Source of the DNA: an uncultured virus (IMG/VR IMGVR_UViG_3300044843_001063)
Lineage: Duplodnaviria > Heunggongvirae > Uroviricota > Caudoviricetes
Reading direction: 5' to 3' (one strand)
DNA: 64,000 nt
IMG/VR virus record: IMGVR_UViG_3300044843_001063
The notes below the pieces were generated by a model that made no database searches, was not told the DNA's origin, and saw only the letters and a list, made by a program, of their open reading frames with translations. Shown here piece after piece: positions 6,624-30,160 of this stretch (its first letter is position 1; the number at the start of each line of letters is the position of its first letter). Position numbers and translations under genes: made by a program.

Positions 6624-7097
6624 ATGAATATATTTGTGTTAGATGAGAATATAGATTTATGTGCACAATATCATGTCGACAAACATTGTGTCAAGATGAT
6701 ATTGGAGACTACGCAATTATTAAATAATGCTGTTTTTGCGCATGATGCAAATTATATACCTATTTATAAACCTACACATCAAAAGCATCCGTGTTCAATT
6801 TGGGCCACGGCATCTCGGTCTAACTTTGAGTGGTTAAATCAATTAGGATTAGCTTTATGTCATGAATACACTTATCGATATCATAAGCGGCATAAGTGTC
6901 ATGATATTTTAGACTATTTTAGTCAATTAGCTAAAGAGCGGATGCCAGATTCTGGTTTAACTAAATTTGCGATATGCATGCCGGAGGAATATAAGGTAGA
7001 GGACCCGATTCTTTCGTATCGAAATTATTATCGAGGAGCTAAGGCAGGATTTGCGAAATGGACTAATCGAGAAGCACCGGAATGGTGGAAACCGTAA
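6624..7097 (+). CDS. pyrimidine-dimer DNA glycosylase/DenV-related protein
   Basis: MNIFVLD..CAQYHVDKHCVKMILE..HPCSIW..EYTYRY family pattern. Confidence 0.75.
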   Translation: MNIFVLDENIDLCAQYHVDKHCVKMILETTQLLNNAVFAHDANYIPIYKPTHQKHPCSIWATASRSNFEWLNQLGLALCHEYTYRYHKRHKCHDILDYFSQLAKERMPDSGLTKFAICMPEEYKVEDPILSYRNYYRGAKAGFAKWTNREAPEWWKP

Positions 7098-7602
7098 TGT
7101 TGAATATAGTTTCTTTAAAAAGAATTCTTTGGGTCAATTTCACTGTGAAGATGGTCCAGCCTTAGAATATTCTTCTGGTAATAAAGAATGGTATCTTCAT
7201 GGTCAACTACATCGAGAAGCTGGTCCAGCAGTAATAAATTTTCAAGGAAATAAATCTTGGTATCTTCATGGTCAGCTCCATCGAGAAGATGGTCCGGCCA
7301 TAGAATATACTGATGGAGAGAAACATTGGTATCTTCATGGCAAAAGACATCGAGAAGGTGGTCCAGCTGTAGAATATAGTGGAATTAAAGAGTGGTATCT
7401 TCATGGCCGATGCCATCGAGAAGATGGCCCAGCATTAGAATGGCCTGATGGATCTAAAGAATGGTATTTTAATGCCCGACTTCATCGAGAAGATGGCCCA
7501 GCGATAAACTGGGCTGATGGAACTAAAGAATATTATCTTCAAGGCAAAGAATATACAGAAGAAGAGTATTGGCGAGTAATTAAATTAAAAGTTTTGTGGT
7601 AG
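7051..7602 (+). CDS. HREDGPA-repeat protein (start uncertain)
   Basis: Tandem WYxxGxxHREDGPA repeats; ends KLKVLW. Confidence 0.8.
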   Translation: MRNGLIEKHRNGGNRNVEYSFFKKNSLGQFHCEDGPALEYSSGNKEWYLHGQLHREAGPAVINFQGNKSWYLHGQLHREDGPAIEYTDGEKHWYLHGKRHREGGPAVEYSGIKEWYLHGRCHREDGPALEWPDGSKEWYFNARLHREDGPAINWADGTKEYYLQGKEYTEEEYWRVIKLKVLW

Positions 7603-7606
7603 CAAT

Positions 7607-7855
7607 ATGCAAGAAATTAAAACATTTAAAGATGGCGCTAAATATTATTATTGGAATAATAAGTTACATCGAGAAGATGGACCAGCCTTAATAAATTTTG
7701 TTGGAGATAAATATTGGTTGCTTTATGGTCAAAAACATCGAGAAGATGGTCCGGCAGTAGTCCACGCTAATGGGTATAAAGAATATTGGCTTCAAGGCAA
7801 AGAATATTCAGAAGAAGAATATTGTCGCTTAGTTAAACTAAAGGCTTTATGGTAA
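7607..7855 (+). CDS. HREDGPA-repeat protein
   Basis: MQEIK start, 2 repeats, KLKALW end. Confidence 0.85.
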   Translation: MQEIKTFKDGAKYYYWNNKLHREDGPALINFVGDKYWLLYGQKHREDGPAVVHANGYKEYWLQGKEYSEEEYCRLVKLKALW

Positions 7856-7858
7856 AAT

Positions 7859-8515
7859 ATGAATGATTGGATTAATTTTATTAAAGAAGAGAGCCATCAG
7901 CCATATTATCGAAATATCTTAGAATTCTTGGAAGAAGATGGAAAACATCATCTTATTTATCCGGCCAGTCAAGATATTTTTAATGCATTTTTCTTATCTC
8001 CTTTAGAAACAACGAAAGTAGTGATCTTAGGACAAGATCCTTATCATAATCCTGGAGAAGCCCATGGCTTATCCTTTTCCGTCCAAGAAGGAGTCAGGAT
8101 TCCTCCCTCATTAAAGAATATTTTTAAAGAATTAGTTAGTGATTTAGGTATTTCTACTCCTATTTATGGAGATTTGACTAGTTGGGCACAGCAAGGAGTA
8201 TTATTATTAAATTCTTGTCTGACAGTCAAAAAAAACGAACCTAATTCGCATAAAAATATTGGTTGGCATTTATTTACGGATCGAGCGATACAGAAAGTAT
8301 CAGCTCAAGGTCGACCGATAGTATTTATATTGTGGGGTAATTTTGCCAGACAGAAAAAGTCATTAATTGTAGGTAATCATCTGATTTTAGAATCAGCTCA
8401 TCCATCTCCATTAAGTGCTCATCAAGGATTTTTTGGATCTCGACCCTTTTCTCAAGCCAATCAATTTTTAATTTCTCAAGGAGAAGAGCCCATTAAATGG
8501 GAGTCAATATGTTAG
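7859..8515 (+). CDS. ung: uracil-DNA glycosylase (family 1)
   Basis: GQDPYH, GLSFSV, LLLN, HPSPLSAHQGF motifs. Confidence 0.95.
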   Translation: MNDWINFIKEESHQPYYRNILEFLEEDGKHHLIYPASQDIFNAFFLSPLETTKVVILGQDPYHNPGEAHGLSFSVQEGVRIPPSLKNIFKELVSDLGISTPIYGDLTSWAQQGVLLLNSCLTVKKNEPNSHKNIGWHLFTDRAIQKVSAQGRPIVFILWGNFARQKKSLIVGNHLILESAHPSPLSAHQGFFGSRPFSQANQFLISQGEEPIKWESIC

Positions 8516-8565
8516 AAATAGTAGAGGGTAATCTGTTAGAGGCTACTGAACAATATATTGCTCAT
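8509..8565 (+). pseudogene. 5' remnant of a macro-domain gene
   Basis: MLEIVEGNLLEATEQYIAH is a typical macro-domain N-terminus; it is cut at TCAT by an IS left end. Confidence 0.6.
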
Positions 8566-8605
8566 GATCTTTAGGCAAGGACACCCTCAGCCTTGTGCTG
8601 AGGGA
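8566..8605 (+). mobile_element. isolated IS200/IS605-family left end (scar)
   Basis: 39/40 nt identical to 14024-14063, including hairpin CCCTCAGC-CTTGT-GCTGAGGG, and preceded by the same TCAT target. Confidence 0.9.
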
Positions 8606-9002
8606 CCAACGACATCGAGAAGATGGTCCAGCAGAAGAATTCTCCAATGGATACAAATATTGGTGGCTCAATGGACGATTACATCGAGAAAATGGCCCAG
8701 CAATCGAAGAAGGCCCAGATAAACACTGGTTTATTCAAGGCATTCGGCATCGAATAGGCGCCCCAGCCATTGAAGAAAATGGAGATAAAGAATGGTGTAT
8801 AGAAGGAAAGCGACACCGAGAAGATGGTCCGGCCATAGAGCGAGCTAATGGAGATAAAGAGTGGTATCTTCGTGGTCAACGACATCGAGAAGATGGTCCG
8901 GCAGTAGAATATGTTGATGGAAGAAAATATTGGTACCTTCAAGGCACAGCATATACAGAAAAAGACTATTGGAGAGTGGTTAAATTAAAAGCATTATGGT
9001 AA
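8606..9002 (+). pseudogene. 5'-truncated HREDGPA-repeat gene
   Basis: Begins mid-repeat right after the IS end; lacks the MQEIK start; ends KLKALW. Confidence 0.75.
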
Positions 9003-9006
9003 TAGT

Positions 9007-9324
9007 ATGAAAGAAATTAAAATAGATGAAGATGGAACTAAAAGATATTATTGGAACGGTCGATACCATCGAGAAGATGGACCGGCCATAGAATTTGTTA
9101 ATGGGGATAAACAATGGTATCTTCATGGTCAATGGCATCGAGAAGATGGCCCAGCGATAGAGCATTCTGATGGATATAAACATTGGTATCTTCATGGTGA
9201 ACGACATCGAGAAGATGGTCCGGCAGTAGAATATCCTTATGAAAGAAAATCTTGGTATCTTCAAGGTAAATCATATTCAGAAGAAGAATACTGGAGAGTG
9301 GTTAAATTAAAAGCATTATGGTGA
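9007..9324 (+). CDS. HREDGPA-repeat protein
   Basis: 3 repeats, KLKALW. Confidence 0.85.
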   Translation: MKEIKIDEDGTKRYYWNGRYHREDGPAIEFVNGDKQWYLHGQWHREDGPAIEHSDGYKHWYLHGERHREDGPAVEYPYERKSWYLQGKSYSEEEYWRVVKLKALW

Positions 9325-9327
9325 AGT

Positions 9328-9639
9328 ATGCAAGAAATTATAGCAGACGAATTTGGTAAATATTACTATTGGAATGGGGAATTTCATCGAGAAGATGGTC
9401 CAGCGATAGAATATATTGATGGTTCTAAAGAATATTGGATTCATGGCAAAATTCATAAAAATAATGGACCCGCGATAGAGCATCAGGCGGATAAATATTG
9501 GTATCAACATCATCATCGTCATCGAGAAGATGGTCCGGCGGTAGAATATGCTGATGGAAGTAAAAAGTGGTACCTTCAAGGTAAAGAATATTCAGAGGAC
9601 GAATACTGGAGAATCGTTAAGCTCAAAGCTTTATGGTAA
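9328..9639 (+). CDS. HREDGPA-repeat protein
   Basis: 3 repeats, KLKALW. Confidence 0.85.
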   Translation: MQEIIADEFGKYYYWNGEFHREDGPAIEYIDGSKEYWIHGKIHKNNGPAIEHQADKYWYQHHHRHREDGPAVEYADGSKKWYLQGKEYSEDEYWRIVKLKALW

Positions 9640-9643
9640 TAGT

Positions 9644-10030
9644 ATGCAAGAAATTAAAATAGATCAACGTGGAACTAAAGAATATTATTGGAATGACCAA
9701 CTCCATCGAGAAGATGGACCAGCTATCGAATGGTATGATGGAGATAAATTTTGGTATTTTCATAATCAACGACATCGAGAAGATGGTCCGGCTGTAGAGC
9801 ATGTTAATGGAGATAAAGAATGGTTTCTTCGTGGTAAATTACATCGAGAAGATGGTCCGGCCATAGATTGGGTTAATGGATTTAAACAGTGGTATCTTCA
9901 TGGTAATCTTCATCGAGAAGATGGTCCAGCAGTAGAAAATGCTCGTGGCGATAAATATTGGTACCTTCAAGGCAAACAATACACAGAAGGAGAATATTGG
10001 CGAATGCTTAAATTAAAAGCTTTGTGGTAA
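9644..10030 (+). CDS. HREDGPA-repeat protein
   Basis: Start reassigned to MQEIK at 9644; 4 repeats, KLKALW. Confidence 0.85.
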   Translation: MQEIKIDQRGTKEYYWNDQLHREDGPAIEWYDGDKFWYFHNQRHREDGPAVEHVNGDKEWFLRGKLHREDGPAIDWVNGFKQWYLHGNLHREDGPAVENARGDKYWYLQGKQYTEGEYWRMLKLKALW

Positions 10031-10034
10031 ACTT

Positions 10035-10490
10035 ATGCAAGAATTAAAAATAGATCAAGAGGGAAATAAGTTTTATTACTATAATGGCCAGTTCCATCGA
10101 GAAGATGGTCCAGCGATAGAACGGACTAATGGAGATAAAGAATATTATCGTTATGGGGTTCTTCATCGAGAAGATGACCCAGCCATAGAATATGTTGATG
10201 GAAGTAAAGAATATTGGGTTAATGGCCGATTACATCGAGACGCTGGCCCTGCTACAGATTATCCTAATGGACATAAATTCTGGTATCTTCATGGTCAACG
10301 TCATCGAGAAGATGGTCCAGCAGTAGAATATACTGATGGAAGCAAATGGTGGTATCTTAATGGTAAATTACATCGAGAAGATGGCCCTGCGAAAGAATTT
10401 TCTAATGGAGATAAATTCTGGTATCTTCAAGGCAAAAACTATTCAGAAGAAGAATATTGGCGTTTAGTTAAGTTGAAAGCTTTGTGGTAA
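10035..10490 (+). CDS. HREDGPA-repeat protein
   Basis: 5 repeats, KLKALW. Confidence 0.85.
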   Translation: MQELKIDQEGNKFYYYNGQFHREDGPAIERTNGDKEYYRYGVLHREDDPAIEYVDGSKEYWVNGRLHRDAGPATDYPNGHKFWYLHGQRHREDGPAVEYTDGSKWWYLNGKLHREDGPAKEFSNGDKFWYLQGKNYSEEEYWRLVKLKALW

Positions 10491-10511
10491 TTTTTAAAAA
10501 TACAGCTCCCC

Positions 10512-10539
10512 TTGCGTCCAATTTATTAAATATTACATT
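10512..10539 (+). promoter_or_regulatory. sigma70-like promoter
   Basis: TTGCGT-N16-TACATT. Confidence 0.45.
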
Positions 10540-10580
10540 GAGTCTTGGAGACCGGGAACCCAAATAAAAAGGAAAAAATT

Positions 10581-11042
10581 ATGAATTCATTAGACAATGA
10601 AGTGAGAAGTGTAATTACTGAATTTATGTCGCAGGACAAATTATTTACTGCTTTAGATGTCAGCAAAAAAGTTAAATTAACCTGTCCTTTTGCTCGACAT
10701 TCTGAAGTTAGAGAATTGGTTCGTCAAATGTTTAAGACTGACATTGTGCCATTACATTGGAATCGCACTTTAATTTCAGTGACCTTAGCTGATGGAACTG
10801 TAACTGATACTTTTTTGTATCATCCAGTGCCAGCTCCAGCTAATGTAGCGGATGTTTACCAACAAGCTTCAATAAACGTTACGCCATACGCCGATCCTTC
10901 TGGACAATTATCATTATTTGCTAATACCGTTGCCTCTTCTTCTACTCCGGTTGCACCGACTCCGGTTACACCGACTCCAGTCTCAGCAAAAGATAGATGG
11001 GCAGATTTATTTAATTCCGCATCTTTGTTTCCTGGAAAATAA
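10581..11042 (+). CDS. hypothetical protein with Pro/Thr-rich linker
   Basis: Start MNSLDNEV after AAGGA; TPVAPTPVTPTPVS. Confidence 0.65.
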   Translation: MNSLDNEVRSVITEFMSQDKLFTALDVSKKVKLTCPFARHSEVRELVRQMFKTDIVPLHWNRTLISVTLADGTVTDTFLYHPVPAPANVADVYQQASINVTPYADPSGQLSLFANTVASSSTPVAPTPVTPTPVSAKDRWADLFNSASLFPGK

Positions 11043-11428
11043 TGCAAGAAATTAAGATAGATTCATTTGGCTCTAAAAGATATTATTGGAATGGTCAGCT
11101 ACATCGAGAAGATGGTCCGGCAATAGAATATACTAATGGATATAAACAATGGTGTTTTCATGGAGACATCCATCGAGAAAATGGGCCAGCTATAGAGTGG
11201 GCTAATGGAGATAAAGAATGGTATTTTCATGGCAAATTACATCGAGAAGACGGTCCAGCAATAGAATATACTACTGGTGGTAAAATTTGGTATCTTCATG
11301 GTCAAAAACATAGAATAGCTGGTCCAGCCAGATTATTTCCTAATGGACATAAAGAATGGTGGCTTCAAAATAAACAATATTCAGAGAAAGAATATTGGAG
11401 AGTAGTTAAGTTGAAATACTTATGGTAA
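11042..11428 (+). CDS. HREDGPA-repeat protein
   Basis: 4 repeats, KLKYLW. Confidence 0.85.
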   Translation: MQEIKIDSFGSKRYYWNGQLHREDGPAIEYTNGYKQWCFHGDIHRENGPAIEWANGDKEWYFHGKLHREDGPAIEYTTGGKIWYLHGQKHRIAGPARLFPNGHKEWWLQNKQYSEKEYWRVVKLKYLW

Positions 11429-11432
11429 AGTT

Positions 11433-11843
11433 ATGCAAGAAATTAAAATAGATAACTGGGGTATTAAAAGATATTATTTAAATAATCAGCTTCATCGAAC
11501 AGATGGTCCAGCGGTAGAATATGATAAGTCTGGAGAAGGAGAATGGTATCTCAATGGAGAGCGCCATCGAGAAGATGGTCCGGCGGTAGAATATGCTACT
11601 GGATCTAAATATTGGTTTCGTCATGATAAATTACATCGAGAAGATGGTCCTGCCGTAGAATCTGCTTATGGAGATAAAGAATGGTATTATCATGGTAAAC
11701 TTCATCGAGAAGATGGTCCAGCGATAGAATATGGTGTTAATTCAATTAAAGGATCTGCTGGAACTAAAGAATATTATCTTAACGGTCTGAAATATTCAGA
11801 AGAAGAATATTGCCGTGTTTTTAAGTTAAAAGCTTTATGGTAA
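11433..11843 (+). CDS. HREDGPA-repeat protein
   Basis: 4 repeats, KLKALW. Confidence 0.85.
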   Translation: MQEIKIDNWGIKRYYLNNQLHRTDGPAVEYDKSGEGEWYLNGERHREDGPAVEYATGSKYWFRHDKLHREDGPAVESAYGDKEWYYHGKLHREDGPAIEYGVNSIKGSAGTKEYYLNGLKYSEEEYCRVFKLKALW

Positions 11844-11846
11844 AAT

Positions 11847-12158
11847 ATGCAAGAAATTAAAGAAGATATATATGGAAAATATTATTATTGGAATGGTCTG
11901 CTCCATCGAGAAGATGGGCCAGCAGTAGAATATACTAATGGATATAAACAATGGTATCTTCATGGTCAACGTCATCGAGAAGACGGTCCGGCCATAGAAT
12001 ATGATGATGTCAAATGGTGGTACTATCATGGTAACCTACATCGAGAAAATGGCCCGGCGGTAGAATATGCTGATGGAAGTAAACAATGGTTTCTTCAAGG
12101 TAAAAACTATTCAGAAGAAGAATATTGGAGAGTTGTTAAATTAAAAGCTTTATGGTAA
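11847..12158 (+). CDS. HREDGPA-repeat protein
   Basis: 3 repeats, KLKALW. Confidence 0.85.
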   Translation: MQEIKEDIYGKYYYWNGLLHREDGPAVEYTNGYKQWYLHGQRHREDGPAIEYDDVKWWYYHGNLHRENGPAVEYADGSKQWFLQGKNYSEEEYWRVVKLKALW

Positions 12159-12162
12159 AGTA

Positions 12163-12411
12163 ATGCAAGAAATTAAAATAGATGAACGTGGAACTAAAAG
12201 ATATTGTTGGAATGGTAAGTTGCATCGAGTAGGTAGTCCTGCGATAGAATGGTCTAATGGTAATGAAGAATGGTGGTTTAATGGTCAGCGACATCGAGCA
12301 GATGGACCAGCCATAGAATATGCTGGTGGAAGTAAAAAGTTTTATCTTCAAGATAAACACTATTTAGAGGAAGAATATTGGCGAATTGTTAAATTAAAAG
12401 CTTTATGGTAA
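12163..12411 (+). CDS. HREDGPA-repeat protein
   Basis: 2 repeats, KLKALW. Confidence 0.85.
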   Translation: MQEIKIDERGTKRYCWNGKLHRVGSPAIEWSNGNEEWWFNGQRHRADGPAIEYAGGSKKFYLQDKHYLEEEYWRIVKLKALW

Positions 12412-12846
12412 AAAATCTTGTCGACCTAATTTGCTTGGTAAATTAAGAAGCTTAGTCAAACTATTCACCGACACCTGAGATAATAATTTATGTTTTCCAA
12501 AATCAATTTGGTTTTCTTGCAGAAAATGATCAATTTCTGTTTGCATTCGATGTAAACGTTCTTGAGTATCAGGATGTAATATAAAATTAATAATGCGAAG
12601 AACACTTTCCGTCATATTATGCCCGGAAACTTCTTTGTTCAATCTCACTAATTGATAGAATATCTGTACCAATTCTTTCCATTGTGGTTCCGGATAATCT
12701 TTCATCCGCAAAGCTAAGAGATCCCCTTCCATCTCATTAACAATGCTCGTTAACTCTTTCGATAAATCTATCCCCATCTCCTCTTGTCCGAGAGAAGTTT
12801 TGAAATAAAATTGGTCTGCTAACTTAAGAATGTTTGATAATTCCAT
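12403..12846 (-). CDS. hypothetical helical protein
   Basis: Minus-strand ORF, likely start MELSNILKLA; converges on the array. Confidence 0.6.
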   Translation of the reverse strand: MELSNILKLADQFYFKTSLGQEEMGIDLSKELTSIVNEMEGDLLALRMKDYPEPQWKELVQIFYQLVRLNKEVSGHNMTESVLRIINFILHPDTQERLHRMQTEIDHFLQENQIDFGKHKLLSQVSVNSLTKLLNLPSKLGRQDFLP

Positions 12847-13471
12847 GCATAATAATGTAAAAATATTCAATAATTTACAAGAATTTTGGGATTATTTTGA
12901 ATTTTGCCCCATTTGTCAACAAAATAATCGCCACATCTATCAAATCGGGTTTTTACCACCTTATGTGGCTAAAGAAACATTCACTAAACAATCCGAAATA
13001 TTACATATTGCCGCAGTATTTAGTATTAATCAACATGCTTACTCAGGTACTTTACAATTAAATTGTCAAAATAATACCTTTAACTTTTCATTAAAAGAAT
13101 TTATCTTCTTAACGAATGCTAAATTTAAAAACATTTTATCTTGTTATTTAAAAGCGGATTGTTTTCATTGTAACTGTAGTTACATTCATGGCCTTATTCA
13201 GTTAAATCTATTAACTCAAACCATTTCCAATTTTGATATTGTGCGTGAAGTAGTTCATTTACTTGATTATGAAGATAAATTTAATATTCAATTAAAGTTT
13301 AAAGACAATGAAATGCAGATATCACAATATACTTCACTTAATATTGGTGAAAATAATCAACCATTGTTAGTTGATGATAATCAAGTGATGACTCTACCTC
13401 TGGTTCCTTTAGATTTTACCAATATTCCAAAAGTTATTTCTCGATTAAAAACTATGATGCTGTTATTTTAG
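12845..13471 (+). CDS. hypothetical protein with CxxC pairs
   Basis: CPIC..CFHC; layout resembles 47504-48070; start uncertain. Confidence 0.6.
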   Translation: MHNNVKIFNNLQEFWDYFEFCPICQQNNRHIYQIGFLPPYVAKETFTKQSEILHIAAVFSINQHAYSGTLQLNCQNNTFNFSLKEFIFLTNAKFKNILSCYLKADCFHCNCSYIHGLIQLNLLTQTISNFDIVREVVHLLDYEDKFNIQLKFKDNEMQISQYTSLNIGENNQPLLVDDNQVMTLPLVPLDFTNIPKVISRLKTMMLLF

Positions 13472-13533: not shown

Positions 13534-13562
13534 TTGACATACCGCTAAGGTGGGATTATATT
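13534..13562 (+). promoter_or_regulatory. sigma70-type promoter
   Basis: TTGACA-N17-TATATT with upstream T-tract. Confidence 0.7.
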
Positions 13563-13594
13563 TTAACCGTGTCAACAAGCAGAAGACAGAGCAG

Positions 13595-13806
13595 CAATGG
13601 AAGCTGGAATCCTTAAATATCCAGACTATGTCTCCATGGTCTAATGGAAGGGCAGCGGGCTTCTAATCCGCTTTATGTAGGTTCGAGTCCTACTGGAGAT
13701 GCCAAGTGATAATTATCCCTAACAATGGAAGCTAGAATCCTTAAATATCTAGACGAGCAACCCTCTGTGGGCTGCAATGGAAGCTGGAATCCTTAAATAT
13801 CCAGAC
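13595..13806 (+). repeat. 32-nt hairpin repeat, 3 copies (13595, 13723, 13775)
   Basis: CAATGGAAGCT(G/A)GAATCCTTAAATATC(C/T)AGAC. Confidence 0.95.
13630..13704 (+). tRNA. tRNA-Arg(TCT)
   Basis: Acceptor GTCTCCA/TGGAGAT; anticodon arm GCGGG-CTTCTAA-TCCGC; T-loop GTTCGAGTC; encoded CCA. Confidence 0.92.
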
Positions 13807-14023
13807 TACGTAGGAACTTTATGATTAAATTAATTTACGACCAGGCAGTTGCCAAACTAAGTAACCAAAAAGATAATTTAGATCAATTAATTAAAGAAAC
13901 TACAGGATCCGAAATTGGCAATTTTATCCAAAGGGTGTTGAGTTGGTATCATGATGAAACTAAGAAACAGTTCCTTTGGGAAATATTTAATAAAGTCTTT
14001 GATTTAAGTCCTGTTTTGTTCAT

Positions 14024-15295
14024 GATTTTTAGGCAAGGACACCCTCAGCCTTGTGCTGAGGGAGGAATTGCCTCTCCTTTCTGCTATCTAAATAATTTTT
14101 TCTTTTACACAAAACTTCCTATATTTATAGGATATATCACTACATATGAGGTTAAATAGAACGGTCAAATTAAAACTTGATGTCAAGGCAGAAGAAATTC
14201 TACCTTCACTTCAGGCGTATACTGCTGCTTTTAATCTTGTCTGTCAAGTAGGTTACAAGAACAAAATAACTAATTCTATTAAACTGCATAAATTAACCTA
14301 CCAAGATTGTCGAACTAACTTTAATTTACCGTCTCAATTAGCTATTTCTGCTAGAACTAAAGCCACTGAAGCTTTAAAAGCCATTAAGAGTAAAAATAAG
14401 TATAGTAAATGTCCACAGTCAAAGTTAGCTGCTATTCGACTAGATTGTAATAGCTACTCTATCGCTAAATCTGGAGTTGTATCTATTCTGACTCTTGCTG
14501 GCAGAAAGAAAATTAAACTAGATATTCCTAGATATTATCAGCATTACTTTACTGATTGGAAATATACTAGTGCTGACCTTCTGATTAAGAAGAATACTGT
14601 CTATTTGCATATCTCTTTTGAGAAAGAAAGAGAAGACGTAAAATCAAACGGTAAGTTTTTAGGAATAGATCGAGGTATCAAAAAGTTAGCCGTTACTTCA
14701 GATAATAAGTTTTATTGCGGAAGTAAATTAAAGTCAATATGTAATAAATATAAAGCATTAAGAAGAAAATTACAGCAAAGTGGTAGTCAATCTGCTAAAA
14801 GACATCTTAAATACCTTTCAGGTAAAGAAAAACGGTTTAAGGCAGACATTAACCATCAGATTAGCAAACAGATTATTAATAGTTTAAATCCAGGCGACAC
14901 TCTAGTATTAGAAAAATTAACTGGTATTAGAAGATTACGTATGAGAAAACCTCAGAGATCAGCCTTGAATAGTTGGAATTATTATCAACTAGAGCAGTTC
15001 CTAATTTATAAAGGTCAGGCAAAAGGCATACAAGTAGTCCATGTTAATCCTGCTTATACGAGTCAACAGTGCAGCAAATGCAATTATGTTGATAAGAAAA
15101 ACAGGAAGACTCAAACTAACTTTTGTTGTCAAGGATGTGAATTTAAACTAAATGCAGACTTAAATGCTAGTAGAAATATTAGCAGACGAGCATTAGATGA
15201 CTATATGTTGTTTAATGGGGCTGAAGTCAATCAGCCTATGGTAGGAGCAGCGAAGCTACTTACAAGCCACCAGCCTTGTGCTGGTGGTAATTGAC
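14024..15295 (+). mobile_element. non-autonomous IS200/IS605-family (IS1341-like) element
   Basis: Inserted 3' of TCAT; LE hairpin 14042-14062; RE hairpin CCACCAGC-CTTGT-GCTGGTGG then TTGAC; no target duplication; no tnpA. Confidence 0.9.
14146..15294 (+). CDS. tnpB: RNA-guided endonuclease TnpB
   Basis: RuvC GIDRG / VLEKL / NADLNA; zinc finger YTSQQCSKC..CQGC. Confidence 0.92.
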   Translation: MRLNRTVKLKLDVKAEEILPSLQAYTAAFNLVCQVGYKNKITNSIKLHKLTYQDCRTNFNLPSQLAISARTKATEALKAIKSKNKYSKCPQSKLAAIRLDCNSYSIAKSGVVSILTLAGRKKIKLDIPRYYQHYFTDWKYTSADLLIKKNTVYLHISFEKEREDVKSNGKFLGIDRGIKKLAVTSDNKFYCGSKLKSICNKYKALRRKLQQSGSQSAKRHLKYLSGKEKRFKADINHQISKQIINSLNPGDTLVLEKLTGIRRLRMRKPQRSALNSWNYYQLEQFLIYKGQAKGIQVVHVNPAYTSQQCSKCNYVDKKNRKTQTNFCCQGCEFKLNADLNASRNISRRALDDYMLFNGAEVNQPMVGAAKLLTSHQPCAGGN

Positions 15296-15882: not shown

Positions 15883-16179
15883 ATGCCACGACCAACATCA
15901 ATTACCCCAGAGGATTTAGCGAGATGGGATAAATTAATAGAAGAAGAATTAGATACTAACTTATCTAGTAATTTACTGTTTCGAGAAGTTTGTTATGCCG
16001 GACAATGGTTAGCAGAACAATTGCATCAATTGAATTGTTCCGATGAAATGATTGTCAGAATTATTTTTACCGCCGGCCGACTCTCCTTTGGAAGAGATCC
16101 TTGGGAAATTTCAACAATGTTATTAACAGGTTATCAAAATAATGAACTTAAATACGAAGACCCTAAATTAATTAATTAA
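15883..16179 (+). CDS. hypothetical protein
   Basis: 98-aa ORF with SD-like AAGGG. Confidence 0.65.
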   Translation: MPRPTSITPEDLARWDKLIEEELDTNLSSNLLFREVCYAGQWLAEQLHQLNCSDEMIVRIIFTAGRLSFGRDPWEISTMLLTGYQNNELKYEDPKLIN

Positions 16180-24519: not shown

Positions 24520-24520
24520 T

Positions 24521-24715: not shown

Positions 24716-24722
24716 GAAAGTT

Positions 24723-25832
24723 ATGAGTCATTCAGTTATTGACACTATAGTTAAGCAAAGTCCTCATTTAAATTGGATAGATAATGGAACTTGTTTATTA
24801 GTTCGACATGGCTCTCATGCGTATGGAACTAATACTGAATCTTCGGATGAAGATTTCAAAGGGATTACTATTCCTCCTTCGAGATATTTTCTAGGATACT
24901 TACAACGTTTTGAGCAGGCAGAATTAAAAGATCCAGATGCGGTTATTTATGATATTAGGAAGTTTTTCCACTTAGCAGCGGATTGTAATCCCAATATTAT
25001 TGAAGTTTTACATACGGATCCGGCCGACCATTGTATTGTCTCTCCGATTGGAGAGATAATTTTGGATCATAAAAATGATTTTTTATCTAAAAAGGCTAAA
25101 CATACATTTAGTGGTTATGCTATTAGTCAATTACACCGAATCCAATCTCATAAAAGATGGATTATGAATCCGCCTCAGGCACCTCCAACCAGAAAAGAGT
25201 TAGGTTTACCGGAGCAAACTTTGATTCCGGCGGATCAATTAGCGGCGGCCGAAGCGGCAGTAAAAAAAGAATTAGATGCTATGTCTTTTGATTTTATGGA
25301 TTCCTTGCAAGATTCTACTAAAATTGAAATTAAAAATGCTATGGCTAAATATTTATCGGAGCTGAAAATAACGGCTGATGAGCAATTTGCAGCTATGGCT
25401 CGAAAAATAGGATTTAATGATAATTTTATTGAAGTTATGGTGCAAGAGAGAAAATATTCTCAATTAAAGAGAGAGTTTGATCAATATCAAAGTTGGAAGC
25501 AAAATCGTAATCGTAAACGATTCGAATTAGAAGAAAAATTTGGTTATGATTGCAAACATGCGTATCATTTGGTAAGATTGCTGCGTATGTGTAAAGAAAT
25601 GCTCTTAACAGGAAAAGTAATTGTTAAGCGACCAGATCGAGAAGAGCTATTAGCCATTCGCAATGGAGCATGGACTTATGATCAATTAATTGAGTATGCT
25701 AAAACAGAAGAAAAATCACTAGATGAGTTGTATTTACCTACGCAGGTTTTGCCTAAAACTCCTAATCAAATAAAATTAGACGAATTATGTGTCGATTTAG
25801 TTGAAAAACATTTCTTTTATGCAAGAAATTAA
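24723..25832 (+). CDS. Pol-beta superfamily nucleotidyltransferase (RlaP/YcgL-like)
   Basis: GSHAYGTNTESSDEDFKG, NPNIIEVL, GYA, YDCKHAYHLVRL. Confidence 0.85.
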   Translation: MSHSVIDTIVKQSPHLNWIDNGTCLLVRHGSHAYGTNTESSDEDFKGITIPPSRYFLGYLQRFEQAELKDPDAVIYDIRKFFHLAADCNPNIIEVLHTDPADHCIVSPIGEIILDHKNDFLSKKAKHTFSGYAISQLHRIQSHKRWIMNPPQAPPTRKELGLPEQTLIPADQLAAAEAAVKKELDAMSFDFMDSLQDSTKIEIKNAMAKYLSELKITADEQFAAMARKIGFNDNFIEVMVQERKYSQLKREFDQYQSWKQNRNRKRFELEEKFGYDCKHAYHLVRLLRMCKEMLLTGKVIVKRPDREELLAIRNGAWTYDQLIEYAKTEEKSLDELYLPTQVLPKTPNQIKLDELCVDLVEKHFFYARN

Positions 25833-26205
25833 GATAGATGAATTTGGTAATAAAGAATATTATTTGAATGGCCAACTGCATAGAGAAGATGGGCCAGCGA
25901 TAGAATTTGTTAATGGAGATAAAGAGTGGTATCTTCACGGTCTTCTCCATCGAGAAGATGGACCAGCAATAGAATATCCTAATGGATATAAAGCATGGTA
26001 TCGTCATGATCAACGGCATCGAGAAGGTGGTTGCGCAGTAGAATATGCTAATGGAGATAAAGAGTGGTGGCTTTATAATCAACTACATCGAGAAGATGGA
26101 CCTGCCGTAGAATGGGCTAACGGCTATAAAGTGTGGTGTCTTCAAGACAAAGAATATACCGAAGAAGAGTATTGGCGAGTAGTTAAGCTAAAAGCTTTAT
26201 GGTAA
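25819..26205 (+). CDS. HREDGPA-repeat protein
   Basis: MQEIK start, 4 repeats, KLKALW. Confidence 0.85.
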   Translation: MQEIKIDEFGNKEYYLNGQLHREDGPAIEFVNGDKEWYLHGLLHREDGPAIEYPNGYKAWYRHDQRHREGGCAVEYANGDKEWWLYNQLHREDGPAVEWANGYKVWCLQDKEYTEEEYWRVVKLKALW

Positions 26206-26209
26206 AGTT

Positions 26210-26665
26210 ATGCAGGAAATTATCATAGATAAATATGACAATAAAGAATATTTTTGGAATGGTCGTTTACATCGAGAAAGCGGACCTGCCGTAGAGCGGT
26301 TTGATGGAACTAAATATTGGTACTTTCATGGTCAACGACATCGAGAAGATGGCCCGGCAGTAGAAGATGCTAGTGGCACTAATGCATGGTGGATTTATGG
26401 TCAACTCCATCGAGAAGATGGACCAGCTATAGAATATGATAGCGGATCTAAAGAATGGTGGCTTCATGGTCAACAACATCGAGTTGATGGTCCGGCCATA
26501 GAATTTGCTGATGGAACTAAATATTGGTATTGTCATCAACAATTACATCGAGCGGATGGTCCAGCCATAGAATGGTCTAATGGACATAAAGAGTGGTATC
26601 TTCAAGGCAAACAATATACAGAAGAAGAATATTATCGAATGCTTAAATTACAGGCTTTATGGTGA
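26210..26665 (+). CDS. HREDGPA-repeat protein
   Basis: 5 repeats, KLQALW. Confidence 0.85.
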   Translation: MQEIIIDKYDNKEYFWNGRLHRESGPAVERFDGTKYWYFHGQRHREDGPAVEDASGTNAWWIYGQLHREDGPAIEYDSGSKEWWLHGQQHRVDGPAIEFADGTKYWYCHQQLHRADGPAIEWSNGHKEWYLQGKQYTEEEYYRMLKLQALW

Positions 26666-27339
26666 ATAAATCTATTCAAATCAAGACCACTAAAAATGGA
26701 GATGTAAAATATTATTTTCATAGCCAGCTCCATCGGGAAGATGGTCCGGCAGTTGAGTGGTCTAATGGTGATAAATCCTGGTACCGTTATGGCAAAAAAC
26801 ACCGACTAGATGGGCCTGCTGTCCAGACTATTTATGGAGATAATGAGTGGTGGTTTCGCGGCATACTTCATCGTGTTGATGGGCCCGCTATAAAGTACAG
26901 TAATGGATTTAAAGAGTGGTACCTTCATGGTCAGCGACATCGAGAAGATGGTCCCGCGGTAGAATATGTTGATGGAAGTAAATCATGGTGGATTCATGGC
27001 CTTCGACACCGAGAAGATGGTCCGGCAATAGAGTATACTAATGGCAGTCAATTATGGTATTATAATAATAATTTACATCGAGAAGATGGTCCAGCCCTAA
27101 AAAATACTAATGGAGATAAAAAGTGGTATCTTCATGGAAGTTTGCATCGAGAAAACGGTCCCGCCATAGAATGGTTTGATGGAGCTAAAGAATGGTGGAT
27201 TAACGATCAGAGACATAGAGAAGATGGTCCGGCCATTGAATCATTAAATTTTAATAAATGGTATCTTTATAATCAAAAAATAAACGTCTCTTCTCAACAA
27301 GAATTTGACAGGTTTTTTAAATTAAAAGCTTTATGGTAA
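26659..27339 (+). CDS. HREDGPA-repeat protein
   Basis: 8 repeats, KLKALW. Confidence 0.85.
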   Translation: MVNKSIQIKTTKNGDVKYYFHSQLHREDGPAVEWSNGDKSWYRYGKKHRLDGPAVQTIYGDNEWWFRGILHRVDGPAIKYSNGFKEWYLHGQRHREDGPAVEYVDGSKSWWIHGLRHREDGPAIEYTNGSQLWYYNNNLHREDGPALKNTNGDKKWYLHGSLHRENGPAIEWFDGAKEWWINDQRHREDGPAIESLNFNKWYLYNQKINVSSQQEFDRFFKLKALW

Positions 27340-27343
27340 AGAT

Positions 27344-27727
27344 ATGCAAGAAATTAAGATAGATGAATATGGCACTAAAAGATATTATTGGAATGGTCAA
27401 CTACATCGAGAAGATGGCCCAGCAGTAGAATTTATTAATGGCGATGAAGAGTGGTACCTTCATGGTCAGCGACATCGAGAAGATGGTCCGGCCTTAGAAT
27501 ATATTGATGGAAGTAAATCATGGTGGTTTCATGGCCAACGACATCGAGAAGGTGGTCCGGCCATAGAATATCGTAATGGAGAGAAATCGTGGTTTTTTCA
27601 TGGCCACAGACATCGAGAAGATGGCCCGGCCGTAGAATGGACCTATATTAATCACTATTATTTGCAAAGTAAAAAATATGCAGAAGAAGAGTATTGGCGC
27701 TTAGTTAAATTAAAAGCTTTATGGTAA
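27344..27727 (+). CDS. HREDGPA-repeat protein
   Basis: 4 repeats, KLKALW. Confidence 0.85.
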   Translation: MQEIKIDEYGTKRYYWNGQLHREDGPAVEFINGDEEWYLHGQRHREDGPALEYIDGSKSWWFHGQRHREGGPAIEYRNGEKSWFFHGHRHREDGPAVEWTYINHYYLQSKKYAEEEYWRLVKLKALW

Positions 27728-27731
27728 AGTA

Positions 27732-28118
27732 ATGCAAGAAATTAAGACAGATCAGCATAGAACTAAATACTACTATTGGAATAGTCTATTACACCGAGAA
27801 GATGGTCCAGCTATAGAAAGAGTAAATGGTAATAACGAATGGTATCTTCATGGATACCGGCATCGAAAAGACGGTCCAGCCTTTATTTCTGGAAAAATAC
27901 AAAAATATTGGCTCAATGGCAAATTACATCGAGAAGATGGCCCCGCAGTTATTTATTATGAAGAATTTACGGAGTGGTATTATCAAGGGCTTAAGCATCG
28001 TATTAATGGTCCGGCGGTAGAATATAGTGATGGATTTAAGAGATTTTATTTGAATGGTAAAATAATAGAATCGGAAGAAGAATATTGGCGGTTAGTTAAG
28101 TTAAAAGCTTTCTGGTAA
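27732..28118 (+). CDS. HREDGPA-repeat protein
   Basis: 4 repeats, KLKAFW. Confidence 0.85.
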   Translation: MQEIKTDQHRTKYYYWNSLLHREDGPAIERVNGNNEWYLHGYRHRKDGPAFISGKIQKYWLNGKLHREDGPAVIYYEEFTEWYYQGLKHRINGPAVEYSDGFKRFYLNGKIIESEEEYWRLVKLKAFW

Positions 28119-28122
28119 AGTA

Positions 28123-28440
28123 ATGCAAGAAATTAAAAAAAATCAAATGGGCGCCACAGTATCTTACTATAATAATCTTCTCCATCGAGAAGATGGTCCA
28201 GCAGTAGAATATCCTTCTGGCCATAAAGAATGGTGGAATCATGATCGATTGCATCGGGAAGATGGACCTGCCATAGAATTTGCTCATGGAACTAAAGTGT
28301 GGTATTTTCATGGAAAATTACATCGAGAAGATGGTCCGGCTTTAGAAAGTGAAAATGGTACTAAAAAATGGTATCTTTATAATAAAGAATATACAGAAGA
28401 AGAATATTGGAGAGTAGTTAAATTGAAAGCTTTGTGGTAA
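28123..28440 (+). CDS. HREDGPA-repeat protein
   Basis: 3 repeats, KLKALW. Confidence 0.85.
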   Translation: MQEIKKNQMGATVSYYNNLLHREDGPAVEYPSGHKEWWNHDRLHREDGPAIEFAHGTKVWYFHGKLHREDGPALESENGTKKWYLYNKEYTEEEYWRVVKLKALW

Positions 28441-28443
28441 AGT

Positions 28444-28584
28444 ATGCAAAAGATCATACTGATTACATCGAGAAGATGGCCCGGCTTTATCAAGAAATGA
28501 TGGCCACAAAGAATGGTACTTTCAAGGTAAAAAATATTCAAAACAAGAATATCAGAGAGCAATCAAACTTCAAATTTTGTTATA
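28444..28584 (+). pseudogene. collapsed, frameshifted HREDGPA gene
   Basis: ATGCAAAAG start, then out-of-frame LHREDGPA..KEWYFQGKKYSKQEYQRAIKLQILL. Confidence 0.65.
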
Positions 28585-28588
28585 AACA

Positions 28589-29104
28589 CTAATAATATTT
28601 ATGTTTAGACTTGACTTTAGCTTTATCGGTATTTTCTACATATTGTTTATTTTTTCCTTCTTGTTTTTTCTTTTTATCTGTCGCCTCTCTTTCTGCAGGC
28701 GTTAAAGATTCCCATTTTTCTTCTGGTAAATATCTTCCAACATAATTAGTATCATCTACTTTAGCCTTATCTTTCTTTTTAAAATCAGATAAATACATCC
28801 ACTTTTGTTTGGTCCATTTTTTCATTTTATTATTTTTAGCTGTTGGTTTTTTACCTTTAAATCCGCCACCTCGTTGTTTGTATAATTTAAGAGCCAGTTG
28901 CATAGCTCTAGCGGAATGCTTACCTCCCATACGAGACTTAGCTTCACTTTTACACCGACTCCACAGTTCTGGATTTGTTTTTACTGCTATACCAGCAGGT
29001 TTTTTAGCTTTAGAGGCTTCTTTAACTAAAGTTAAGTATTTTTCTTCTAAATATTCTGCAACAACATATAAATAGTTAAGCGGATCAATTAAATCATTTA
29101 TCAT
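28589..29104 (-). CDS. basic phage protein, DUF5872-like
   Basis: NPELW..K..GGKHSARAMQLA..YKQRGGGF..KWTKQKW..RYLP..W..LT. Confidence 0.65.
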   Translation of the reverse strand: MINDLIDPLNYLYVVAEYLEEKYLTLVKEASKAKKPAGIAVKTNPELWSRCKSEAKSRMGGKHSARAMQLALKLYKQRGGGFKGKKPTAKNNKMKKWTKQKWMYLSDFKKKDKAKVDDTNYVGRYLPEEKWESLTPAEREATDKKKKQEGKNKQYVENTDKAKVKSKHKYY

Positions 29105-29127
29105 ATCTATAATAGCAAAATATTATT

Positions 29128-29373
29128 ATGCATTACGTTTTGAATGTGCCAGGATTGATACAGCATATGTTTGATGGAAAAATCCATCGAGAAGATGGCC
29201 CGGCTCTTATCCTAGATATGGGTATTGATATTTGGTATCAAAATGGAAAAATACATCGAGAAAATGGTCCTGCGATAGAATTTAAGAATGGAGATAAAAA
29301 GTGGTTTCTCCAAGATCGAGAATATACAGAAAAAGATTATTGGCGAATGGTTAAATTAAAAGCCTTATGGTGA
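29128..29373 (+). CDS. HREDGPA-repeat protein
   Basis: 2 repeats, KLKALW. Confidence 0.8.
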   Translation: MHYVLNVPGLIQHMFDGKIHREDGPALILDMGIDIWYQNGKIHRENGPAIEFKNGDKKWFLQDREYTEKDYWRMVKLKALW

Positions 29374-29377
29374 AATT

Positions 29378-29836
29378 ATGGATAAAATAGAAATTGAGAA
29401 GGGTAAATATGGAGATTACCATTATTGTAATGGAAAACTACATCGACACGATGGCCCGGCGATAGATTCTATTCTTGGAGTTAAAGAATGGTATCTTCAT
29501 GGCAAACTTCATCGGGAAGATGGTCCTGCCTTCATAAATTTGGCTGGAGATAAATATTGGTTTCGTCATGGAAAATGTCATCGGGAAGATGGCCCCGCCA
29601 AAGAATATACTAATGGTAATAAATTCTGGCTTATTAATGATCAACTTCATCGAGAAGATGGTCCGGCTGCAGAATATGCTGATGGTTCTAAAGAATGGTT
29701 TATTCATGGGCAACGTCATCGAGAAGATGGTCCTGCCGTAGAAGAAGTTGATGGAAGAAAATATTGGTACCTTCAAGGCAAAAAATATACCGAAGAAGAA
29801 TATTTAAGAATAGTTAAATTAAAAGCTTTATGGTAA
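29378..29836 (+). CDS. HREDGPA-repeat protein
   Basis: 5 repeats, KLKALW. Confidence 0.85.
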   Translation: MDKIEIEKGKYGDYHYCNGKLHRHDGPAIDSILGVKEWYLHGKLHREDGPAFINLAGDKYWFRHGKCHREDGPAKEYTNGNKFWLINDQLHREDGPAAEYADGSKEWFIHGQRHREDGPAVEEVDGRKYWYLQGKKYTEEEYLRIVKLKALW

Positions 29837-29839
29837 AGT

Positions 29840-30160
29840 ATGCAAAAAATAAAGATAGATAAAGTAGGTAATAAAAAATATTATTGGAATGGTCAGCTTC
29901 TTCATCGAGAAGATGGTCCAGCGGTAGAATATACTAATGGCGGTGAAGAGTGGTATCTTCATGGCAAAAGACATCGAGAAGATGGTCCAGCGGCAGAATA
30001 TGCTAATGGAGATAAACATTGGTATCTTCATGGTCAACGCCATCGAGAAGACGGACCAGCGATAGAATGGGCTGATGGAACTAAAGAATGGTATCTTCAA
30101 GGTAAAGAATATTCAAAAAAAGAATATTACAGAAGAGTTAAGCTCAAAGCTTTATGGTAA
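29840..30160 (+). CDS. HREDGPA-repeat protein
   Basis: 3 repeats, KLKALW. Confidence 0.85.
   Translation: MQKIKIDKVGNKKYYWNGQLLHREDGPAVEYTNGGEEWYLHGKRHREDGPAAEYANGDKHWYLHGQRHREDGPAIEWADGTKEWYLQGKEYSKKEYYRRVKLKALW

Follow-up and report, generated by a model that had tools for sequence, protein, structure and literature searches.

MORN-like repeat arrays of an uncultured phage as a possible branch of a clade-wide C-terminal tagging system with a candidate MoxR/vWA receptor

Poxviral ankyrin-PRANC/F-box proteins and other viral F-box adaptors carry a C-terminal helix that is thought to plug into one machine, and in bacteria SspB acts as an AAA+ adaptor. We analysed a 64,000-nucleotide stretch of a huge lake phage, an uncultured virus of the Caudoviricetes (the window; IMG/VR IMGVR_UViG_3300044843_001063), in which two arrays of repeat genes likewise combine a variable repeat head, a constant C-terminal helix and expanded paralogues. 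Unlike the poxviral adaptors, these proteins belong to a bacterial virus, where there is no ubiquitin system; the two groups have no sequence relation, the phage tag is about 12 residues long, and its candidate receptor is encoded by the phage itself. F-box and PRANC Pfam families were absent from all 20 repeat genes and from 102 other tagged proteins. SspB, and likewise the SPO1 protein Gp53, an adaptor for ClpC (PMC6873191), also join a substrate-binding body to a short AAA+-engaging element. Each of them is a lone adaptor that serves a host Clp ATPase, whereas in the phages one tag is common to tens to more than 100 unrelated proteins in each genome. Known MoxR/vWA pairs, as in this phage, place a MoxR-type ATPase beside a vWA protein whose N-terminal part is a metallopeptidase (PMC7824862; PMC7159879); the mechanism described as common to such pairs is that the vWA protein captures a peptide and MoxR remodels (PMC7159879), and for a jumbo-phage MoxR/vWA-peptidase pair virion assembly was proposed (PMC7824862). 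The portions of both papers on which we draw speak of virion assembly or effector switching, with no mention of a tagged client library. The phage locus differs from these pairs in having two MoxR paralogues, and its Walker, HExxH and MIDAS residues are intact.

The arrays consist of 20 genes and one collapsed remnant, all on the + strand; the first array (7051-12411) holds 11 copies and the second (25819-30160) holds 10. In gene context, the - strand of the window gave no match to the repeat motif or the tail. Each gene ends in a KLKALW-type tail (K-L-[KQ]-[AVY]-[LF]-W-stop in 20 ORFs, exactly KLKALW in 16) and carries 2-8 predicted MORN-like hairpin units spaced by 23 residues. The first array opens with a six-unit gene (7051-7602, one unit reading HCEDGPA, tail KLKVLW), whose likely ATG at 7097 is out of frame by one base, and a two-unit KLKALW gene (7607-7855). 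The copy at 8595-9002 has lost its 5' end behind an IS605-like end sequence (8566-8604), a 39-nt string that occurs a second time at 14024, upstream of tnpB (0 expected). It is followed by genes of three (9007-9324), three (9328-9639), four (9644-10030), five (10035-10490), four (11042-11428, KLKYLW), four (11433-11843), three (11847-12158) and two units (12163-12411). The second array comprises genes of four (25819-26205, one unit a GGCA variant), five (26210-26665, KLQALW), eight (26659-27339, with an older-style SSQQEFDR helix), four (27344-27727), four (27732-28118, KLKAFW, the sole window copy with Phe at -2) and three units (28123-28440), then the frameshifted one-unit remnant (28444-28592), in which the tail has decayed to IKLQILL, and genes of two (29128-29373), five (29378-29836) and three units (29840-30160).

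Starts read exactly MQEIK in 10 of the 20 genes and M[QK][EK][IL][KI] in 15. Neighbouring copies are separated by 3-4 nt at 15 of 20 junctions and overlap by 7 nt at one; three further junctions are occupied by genes of another kind, and the last spans the interval from one array to the next. SD-like words precede 0 of 21 repeat copies; for the remaining + strand ORFs, whose starts were assigned automatically, the figure is 14 of 61. Thus the preliminary description, which counted about 21 genes with 2-8 units of about 23 residues, mostly MQEIK starts, a near-invariant KLKALW tail, 3-4 nt spacing, no SD sequence, one truncated and one collapsed copy, was borne out. Pieces of the first array were found in contigs of four out of four lake runs (four studies), and one contig of run X4 has an extra A after 7116, a poly-A length variant in the first copy. 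No contig covers the whole stretch, so the gene order depends on the assembly of the window.

The product of the gene at 10035-10490 was predicted as a beta-hairpin meander with a helix at residues 138-150 (pLDDT 95.6). MORN proteins ranked first in Foldseek (E 7e-6 to 1e-3, with TM-scores of only 0.3-0.46) and were the top matches in VIA (Z 8.0-8.2, a level common for repeats; rmsd 5-7 over 132-138 aligned residues). In the window and genome G005 together, 176 units lie at exactly 23-residue spacing, in tandem as MORN repeats do. MORN1 (6t68, 6t69, 6t4d), MORN4 in its complex with the partner Myo3a (6jle), junctophilins and radial-spoke heads are meanders of 23-residue beta-hairpin repeats, as the phage proteins are predicted to be; the phage proteins differ from them by another consensus with an HREDGPA insert, tandem gene arrays and the docking tail. 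None of the 20 copies matched the MORN Pfam profile (PF02493) at E up to 0.1. DUF6745 (PF20530), a family without known function, matched 17 of 20 at the same threshold (best 5e-10), over about 20 of its 206 profile positions. HREDGPA arrays also occur in other phages, each with its own constant tail; an [ST]EEE[FY] helix start is widespread across the family, and many of its members end without any helix.

To assess selection on the tail, 58 sequences of last unit plus tail were compared. K(-6), L(-5), L(-2) and Y(-11) had pN of 0-0.03 and pS of 0.26-1.0, and W(-1) was invariant. These tail codons are under purifying selection. A tail that merely caps the repeat fold and owes its uniformity to recent amplification would suit the constant tails of other phages' arrays and the common helix start. 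Yet the synonymous sites of the tail have diverged while its residues have not, many repeat proteins finish without a helix, and the tail occurs on non-repeat heads and switches together with unrelated orthologues, so this explanation is extremely improbable. For the last 6-9 residues it is largely refuted; a capping role may still belong to the opening turns of the helix.

The switch concerns position -2. Repeat proteins have Leu there in 19 of 20 window genes and in 53 of 55 from G005, and Phe in 14 of 15 from G001-G003. All five non-repeat ORFs with an F-tagged orthologue also have Leu, encoded by CTC as well as TTA, and one non-repeat ORF of G005 retains Phe. Such a gene-by-gene change in the repeats and in five unrelated orthologues points to one shared receptor, and probably a single receptor does read the tag.

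The F-tag, a basic C-terminal helix with Phe at -2, is found on many small proteins of related 0.36-0.45 Mb phages. In the set of ORFs at least 55 aa long, and with expectation taken from internal positions (about 0.7-2.5), it was carried by 121/739 in G001, 84/597 in G003, 55/667 in G002, 10/480 in G004 and 9/203 in G007; G015 had 37/630, and the control Atu_ph07 2/625. With tails masked, 279 tagged proteins fell into 208 BLAST families, a number that overstates the folds because an N-terminal CxxC recurs in 92 of 205 tagged heads. Only 1 of 102 sampled tagged proteins has a Pfam family. The consensus is [LI]-x-[KR]-hydrophobic-x-K-L-K-A-F-x-COOH; in the window lineage Leu replaces the Phe. 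When ORF ends were searched for KLKA[LF]W-stop, 130 distinct ones matched, 65 of them without the repeat motif; by eye about 20-25 of these resemble genes with unrelated heads, the others being fragments, degenerate repeats or chance. In the window, three non-repeat ORFs on the + strand bear the tag: 12830-13471 (CxxC head, end RLKTMMLLF; orthologue ends TLILFS and TYILFS), 37703-38182 (RLQKLLILL; Phe at -2 in three orthologues) and 47504-48070 (CxxC head, KIDTVLTLL), for which an orthologue search found none. That the tag is clade-wide, with most instances on non-repeat proteins, and that the window has three such ORFs of its own had been overlooked in the first reading.

The tag is thus portable, selected and switches jointly across unrelated genes, as expected of the variable head with a constant docking tail proposed earlier, and its alternative there, a purely structural cap, fails on the same evidence. 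The beta-clamp binding motif QL[SD]LF was tried and rejected, for the tag has Lys at the Gln place in 163 of 279 proteins and at the Ser/Asp place in 131. Basic-then-hydrophobic C-termini also mark substrates of ClpX, FtsH and Tsp, and known degrons need less than a fixed helical register of 12 residues. The tag resembles such termini and always sits at a free C-terminus, so tagged early proteins could be substrates that a phage or host protease clears on schedule; we give this little credence, since a tag on a recognisable enzyme or core protein is very rare (a Pfam family in 1 of 102 sampled) and the register (K/R at -9 in 233 of 279) exceeds what a degron requires.

Membrane-targeting amphipathic helices are known from MinD and FtsA, and the tail is basic, amphipathic and aromatic-ended. 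Gathering of binders at the inner membrane is nevertheless quite improbable: the small residue at -3, the strictness of -2 and the F-to-L change, made across the lineage by independent codon changes, imply a shaped protein pocket, and the final residue is often S, T or K. T4 internal proteins have the same design of variable head and constant tag, with a cleaved N-terminal signal; the phage tag is C-terminal, and the T4 capsid-targeting leader was rejected as a match. Dispatch of tagged proteins into the capsid for injection would accord with that design and with the virion-assembly role proposed for a MoxR/vWA pair (PMC7824862), but it is very improbable, as the tagged genes lie among repair and early-type genes, are nearly missing where the structural genes lie (220-300 kb of G001, with 0-2 per 20 kb) and number as many as 121 kinds per genome. 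Membrane links are described for MORN proteins in the part of PMC5753266 drawn on here, which would favour the membrane helix.

The best receptor candidate, at close to an even chance, is the phage's own MoxR-A/MoxR-B/vWA-metallopeptidase machine. MoxR-A (16305-17438) and its paralogue MoxR-B (30220-31326, 59 nt downstream of the last repeat gene), both phrog_1297 and on the + strand, conserve the AAA+ Walker A/B motifs GRRGTGKT/LLDEVD and GQKGVGKT/LFDEVD. A small conserved gene (15883-16179, +) lies immediately upstream of MoxR-A. The HExxH-fused vWA protein (17476-19128, +; DUF2201_N and DUF2201), a candidate MoxR partner, adjoins MoxR-A as in MoxR/vWA pairs. Its peptidase residues H94-E95-H98 are invariant in 8 sequences; among 117, the MIDAS residues D423, S425 and S427 are invariant and T485 and D509 at least 90% conserved.

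By presence of a tagged gene within two positions, MoxR-A, vWA and MoxR-B rank in the top 6 of 153 core genes, and the nearest tagged gene to ClpP is 4-73 genes off. Across 72 MoxR-A loci, tagged genes occupy -1 in 19/59 and +2 in 12/42, against 35/439 at 6-14 genes distance. The -1 neighbour is often one same orthologous gene, so these counts are not independent, and the MoxR-A region may tolerate insertions, nothing more. Window MoxR-A deviates at 21 of 62 conserved columns of its C-terminal domain (residues 275-377) and at 3 of 190 ATPase columns (medians 1 and 2), the most altered C-domain of 128 sequences. G003 MoxR-A, though F-type, differs at 18/62 C-domain columns and 23/190 elsewhere; none of five other L-type contigs has MoxR-A, so the receptor covariation is one event in one lineage. 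The C-terminal half of window rIIA is a stronger hotspot (18/30 against 10/30), and F-type relatives vary there to an equal degree.

Docking on the phage ClpP/ClpR, in the manner of an IGF loop or ADEP, or on another phage machine such as a 453-aa AAA protein, trigger factor, DnaJ or rIIA, is improbable. The ClpR-like and ClpP genes (56485-57707, +) form a pair with one active subunit: S101 and H126 of ClpP (57114) are invariant in 8 sequences, and the ClpR-like protein (56485), without catalytic Ser/His, has GSAMDEAA and SAGQL at what we take to be the catalytic motif positions. This pair occurs in all four large tagged genomes, G007 and G015, and certain clade tails read LIGFL or LMGFL. Against it, tagged genes never adjoin ClpP, window ClpP and ClpR are nearly unaltered despite the tag change (2/54 and 3/54 columns), and columns presumably lining the hydrophobic pocket, assigned by E. 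coli ClpP positions, vary among relatives. In its favour, no Clp ATPase family was detected among 124 of 155 core proteins scanned, so ClpP/ClpR would need an activator. The HbYX tail docks on the 20S proteasome by a penultimate Tyr; the tag has Phe or Leu there (again with 124/155 core proteins scanned). For the preliminary proposal of an AAA+ or Clp dock, linkage and sequence change favour the MoxR-A/vWA locus and not ClpP/ClpR.

A host protein (AAA+ unfoldase or protease, chaperone, clamp or RNA polymerase surface), with F-to-L following a host change, is unlikely, though less so than ClpP/ClpR. Portability, selection and the joint switch suit any single receptor, and a phage protein that serves as adaptor to the host's ClpC has been described (PMC6873191). 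Relatives also retain the machine without tags in the parts sampled (about 200 kb each): G022 has MoxR-A, MoxR-B, vWA and ClpP with 0/345 tagged ORFs, and G023 has MoxR-A and vWA with 0/341. Atu_ph07 lacks the tag and carries a distant vWA-peptidase. The machine does not, then, imply the tag. A host receptor leaves unexplained why tagged genes cluster at the MoxR/vWA locus and why the MoxR-A C-domain changed specifically in the window. One F-ending ORF was seen near MoxR-A in G022.

The tag helix probably plugs into one machine shared by all these proteins, which may be the MoxR/vWA ATPase complex. The arrays may, on a tentative view a little short of even, be one branch, amplified locally, of a tagging system that spans the clade and docks there. 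Small, apparently non-enzymatic proteins would present a fast-changing head (MORN-like meander here, CxxC or helical elsewhere) and a free basic amphipathic C-terminal helix, read most likely by the C-terminal helical domain of MoxR-A. By analogy, the heads would bind host proteins and carry them to an ATP-driven remodelling or cutting machine. It is rather doubtful, but conceivable, that the widespread 0.35-0.48 Mb clade encodes its own adaptor-programmed protein remodelling or degradation system, which a MORN-like sub-library would retarget to host defence proteins. A two-paralogue MoxR ring with the vWA-metallopeptidase would then be supplied by up to about 120 small tagged adaptors per genome, the MORN-like arrays being a recombining, antibody-like sub-library. 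If true, the SCF/F-box design would have its counterpart in a prokaryotic virus, where the tag and its receptor co-evolve.

The binding repertoire would, again by analogy, be renewed through repeat gain, loss and exchange. Diversifying selection at variable repeat positions, which the preliminary description expected, was not established: uncorrected pN/pS was 1.2-1.4, a weak indication. Its proposal of diversification by repeat recombination finds some support, as the window gene at 11433 and the G005 gene at 5451 share a block of 52 nt that includes a private insert.

The two arrays of HREDGPA-repeat genes recognised in the preliminary description, 11 copies at 7051-12411 and 10 at 25819-30160, are present as described there. 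Twenty ORFs end in K-L-[KQ]-[AVY]-[LF]-W-stop, 16/20 of them exactly in KLKALW, each gene carries two to eight units of 23 residues, and a frameshifted remnant lies beside these intact-ended ORFs at 28444-28592. The reported lack of an SD was likewise borne out (SD-like word at 0/21 array starts vs 14/61 other ORFs), and the reported junctions of 3-4 nt were found at 15 of the 20 consecutive positions, the rest being different. Pieces of array 1 occur on contigs from four lake-water runs (four studies), and no contig covers the whole array. Contig joints were rejected as array rearrangements, because two placements were possible for 69-95 contigs in three runs, and further copies elsewhere in the genome could account for them. 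The frame of repeat gene 1 is broken at a poly-A run (7097-7130) where an additional A is present in a single contig of run X4, possibly reflecting on/off slippage within the population. At 8510-8604, the start of a short ORF (MLEIVEGNLLEATEQYIAH), which we take to be macro-domain-like, is interrupted by a 39-nt string, after which repeat gene 3 resumes; the same string recurs at 14024-14062, upstream of tnpB, and the site looks like an IS605-end scar plus a deletion. A conserved protein within array 1 (10545-11042) ends in SASLFP in the window and in QPSLFP in its orthologues, the latter presumably beta-clamp-motif-like.

The AlphaFold model of array gene 10035 (pLDDT 95.6) consists of a beta-hairpin meander and then a helix at 138-150, and its closest solved folds are MORN proteins, with modest scores. 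The MORN profile matched none of the array copies, and the modelled repeat appears MORN-like in fold while lying outside MORN profile matches. The HREDGPA family has a very large membership (7473 of 8000 candidates scored), found in cultured phages and in giant eukaryotic viruses, which hoard MORN and other repeat genes according to PMC5753266. By eye, the repeat protein P0048 has HREDGPA units behind an F-box-like start, and P0056 and P0108 have box-like ends; these may be giant-virus adaptors. The constant tail of arrays in other phages differs from phage to phage: unrelated phages combine HREDGPA repeats with other constant tails (L025, L027, L045, L052, L017) or with a constant head (L051), showing reuse of the repeat alongside different modules. 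In G005, a genome of the window's lineage, 72 repeat ORFs lie within 122 kb, and 54 bear the window-type tail. The units had been described as a diversified surface. Variability is found at positions 10, 11, 14, 16 and 23 (2.3-3.1 bits, 176 units), whose pN/pS of 1.2-1.4, taken from a minimum-spanning tree of the units, uncorrected and blind to recombination, indicates neutral to mildly diversifying change and leaves positive selection unproven. Window gene 11433 and G005 gene 5451 have in common a 52-nt block that carries a private insert, consistent with segment exchange.

As a tag, the tail is portable. When viral contigs were scanned at the DNA level for KLKA[LF]W-stop, 130 distinct ORF ends emerged, 65 of them without the repeat motif, and about 20-25 of these 65 look, by eye, like genes with unrelated heads. 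In related huge phages, ORFs ending in the basic helix with Phe at position -2 from the end (F-type; Leu at -2 is L-type) numbered 121/739 in G001, 84/597 in G003, 55/667 in G002, 10/480 in G004 and 9/203 in G007, vs 0.7-2.5 expected per genome from how often internal positions match the pattern. This pattern was defined after viewing these five genomes, so the fairer test is given by the MoxR-A loci below and by a further relative, G015, in which 37/630 ORFs were F-tagged (387 of 447 kb covered); the control phage Atu_ph07 had 2/625 (390 of 490 kb covered). The consensus of the 279 tagged proteins is K/R at -9 (233), K at -6 (163), L at -5 (181), K at -4 (131) and A at -3 (132), with a variable last residue, and only 14/279 contain the HREDGPA repeat. 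With the tail masked, they form 208 BLAST families, 177 of them singletons, a number that overstates fold diversity since an N-terminal CxxC occurs in 92/205. No Pfam family was found in 101/102 proteins sampled (every second of 205 tagged proteins, minus those crossing a locus edge). The tag offers one testable function for many 'hypothetical' genes, up to about one in six proteins in some genomes of this clade (121/739). The clade's sequence clusters number in the hundreds, with 808 MoxR-A-like proteins at E <=1e-30 among 7999 scored.

The tag is retained beside a MoxR-A only 49% identical to the window's, in the distant relatives L423 and L424. Their tagged genes are directly interleaved with MoxR-A, vWA and rIIA and end in FK, FT, FS and FW; those of L424 are short and resemble the HREDGPA repeat family. 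Gene 33977-34711, found in all ten relatives checked, encodes a helical-looking repeat protein with a basic-hydrophobic helix end (NFLIVL) and matched no Pfam or PHROG family; it was rejected as a tagged protein, since the gene belongs to the conserved core and most of its orthologues have Val at -2.

Among 58 last-unit-plus-tail sequences, key tail residues showed pN of 0-0.03 although synonymous sites had diverged (pS 0.26-1.0), and the tail has decayed in the frameshifted remnant, so recent duplication alone is insufficient; judged by these codon comparisons, the tail is under selection. Leu stands at -2 in 19/20 repeat proteins of the window and 53/55 of G005, and Phe in 14/15 of G001-G003. 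All five non-repeat ORFs with an F-tagged orthologue also have Leu (window 12830 and 37703; G005 102148, 103125 and 104488), and because their codons are CTC (three) and TTA (two), separate genes changed separately. The G005 cluster at 102148-104850 has Leu at -2 in 6/6 ORFs, and one G005 ORF elsewhere keeps Phe. The simplest reading of this coordinated switch, which we infer from sequence comparison, would be a single receptor with an altered pocket. That the tail only caps the repeat fold is hardly credible, as the tag also occurs on non-repeat proteins, is selected and switches across separate genes. The conserved basic helix might otherwise be a degron, which we regard as improbable, a membrane anchor, which is still less probable, or a capsid address, for which we see very little chance. 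L371 was rejected as a second F-to-L switch: it has a divergent MoxR-A C-domain and then paired ORFs ending in IL (2759-3683, sharing KKCLIYSIL/KKYLIFSIL), but the helix is different. On L378 (750-1333), a divergent MoxR-A C-domain precedes paired ORFs sharing EFCRMFL/EFCRMFI.

The receptor that we tentatively favour, with somewhat less than even confidence, is the putative machine formed by MoxR-A (16305-17438), the vWA-metallopeptidase (17476-19128) and MoxR-B (30220-31326). Tagged genes are linked to it: all three of its genes are in the top six of 153 core genes ranked by having a tagged gene at most two genes away, and array 2 ends 59 nt upstream of MoxR-B. At 72 distinct MoxR-A loci, a tagged gene lies just upstream in 19/59 and just after vWA in 12/42, vs 35/439 at 6-14 genes, although these counts are not independent because one orthologue often occupies the upstream position. 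Docking on the ClpP/ClpR pair (56485-57707) or another phage machine is unlikely. The nearest tagged gene is 4-73 genes from ClpP, and ClpP and ClpR of the window have hardly changed. Window MoxR-A shows receptor-like divergence: residues 275-377 differ at 21/62 conserved columns (kept in 90% or more of 120 homologues) vs 3/190 before 275, and no other of 128 sequences reaches 21. Loci with the usual MoxR-A C-domain have F-type tags wherever any are seen.

Against the MoxR/vWA machine as receptor, the MoxR-A change is known from one lineage, with no other L-type contig having MoxR-A, and the F-type G003 is likewise divergent in the MoxR-A C-domain. Window MoxR-B deviates at 17/160 N-terminal columns, which places the lineage on a long branch. 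The relatives G022 and G023 have the machine and no tags in ~200 kb each, and gene presence or absence among relatives did not separate MoxR from ClpP as receptor. Docking of the tag on a host receptor would be a lesser possibility, rather unlikely in our judgement. rIIA was set aside as receptor, its C-terminal half varying equally in F-type relatives. A complex prediction with MoxR-A, MoxR-B, the vWA domain and the last 52 residues of 10035 gave a score of 0.06 and a mark of 0.32 in a four-chain design outside the tool's calibration, which counts neither for nor against the machine, and the AlphaFold model of the vWA-peptidase (pLDDT 46) was too low for use. Profiles of MoxR-A and vWA found no usable match among PDB sequences, nor did the MoxR-A C-domain and gene 12830 in the ESM Atlas. 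PMC7824862 proposes virion assembly for the jumbo-phage MoxR/vWA-peptidase gene pair. The 98-102-aa gene at 15883-16179 lies directly upstream of MoxR-A in most relatives, distant ones included, and its product is possibly a fourth subunit of the machine. In G002 (C1:34201-36357), MoxR-B has 718 aa vs ~368 elsewhere, probably owing to an insertion such as an intein.

We infer the receptor, an adaptor role and targets in the following scheme. Translationally coupled early genes would yield small binders, with coupling suggested by spacing; a promoter scan of the window was at chance level (64 vs 60.9), so timing is read from neighbours only. The head would bind a target, and the tail helix would insert into the C-domain of MoxR-A within a MoxR-A/B ring. 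The client or complex would be engaged by the MIDAS site of the vWA protein and remodelled by ATP hydrolysis, on a principle given in PMC7159879. The HExxH domain of the vWA protein could also cut the client. If the adaptor reading is true, bacteria would harbour here a modular system of targeted degradation or remodelling, which would also be a new counter-defence class. The natural F and L tags with matching MoxR-A variants would provide a clean specificity-swap pair, with no cultured phage needed. F-box/PRANC and SspB are adaptor designs of this kind, and eukaryotic viruses are known to use this working principle; the proposed system would work like them, but the tagged proteins belong to neither family. 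Its working also resembles that of SPO1 Gp53 (PMC6873191), but the tagged proteins are outside the Gp53 family. A literature search, with most subscription papers and all supplements outside it (those of PMC7824862 could list these genes), found no description of the tag or of the HREDGPA family.

The window comes from a huge phage and encodes rIIA/rIIB, PNKP, RNA ligase, IF3, a DksA-type finger, two MoxR-like ATPases, the metallopeptidase-vWA protein, the ClpP pair and three TnpB genes, and a protein of a window gene is recorded on a contig of up to 259 kb. Relatives of 359-448 kb have most window genes at ~30-80% identity, and a scan of 124 of the 155 core proteins found a Pol III alpha subunit, a TubZ-like tubulin, bS21, trigger factor and DnaJ in them. 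Window IF3 gave matches of 41-53% over many phyla, uninformative on the host. Three ~32-nt repeat copies at 13590-13810 surround tRNA-Arg(TCT) (13630-13704), with an 11/12 sigma-70-like site upstream at 13534. Glycosyltransferase, methyltransferase, HAD/nucleotidyltransferase, RmlD-like and Thg1 genes cluster at 39328-45754 and 49443-50980, and a WGR-PARP_reg-PARP protein (3050-4525) is 62-65% conserved in four relatives.
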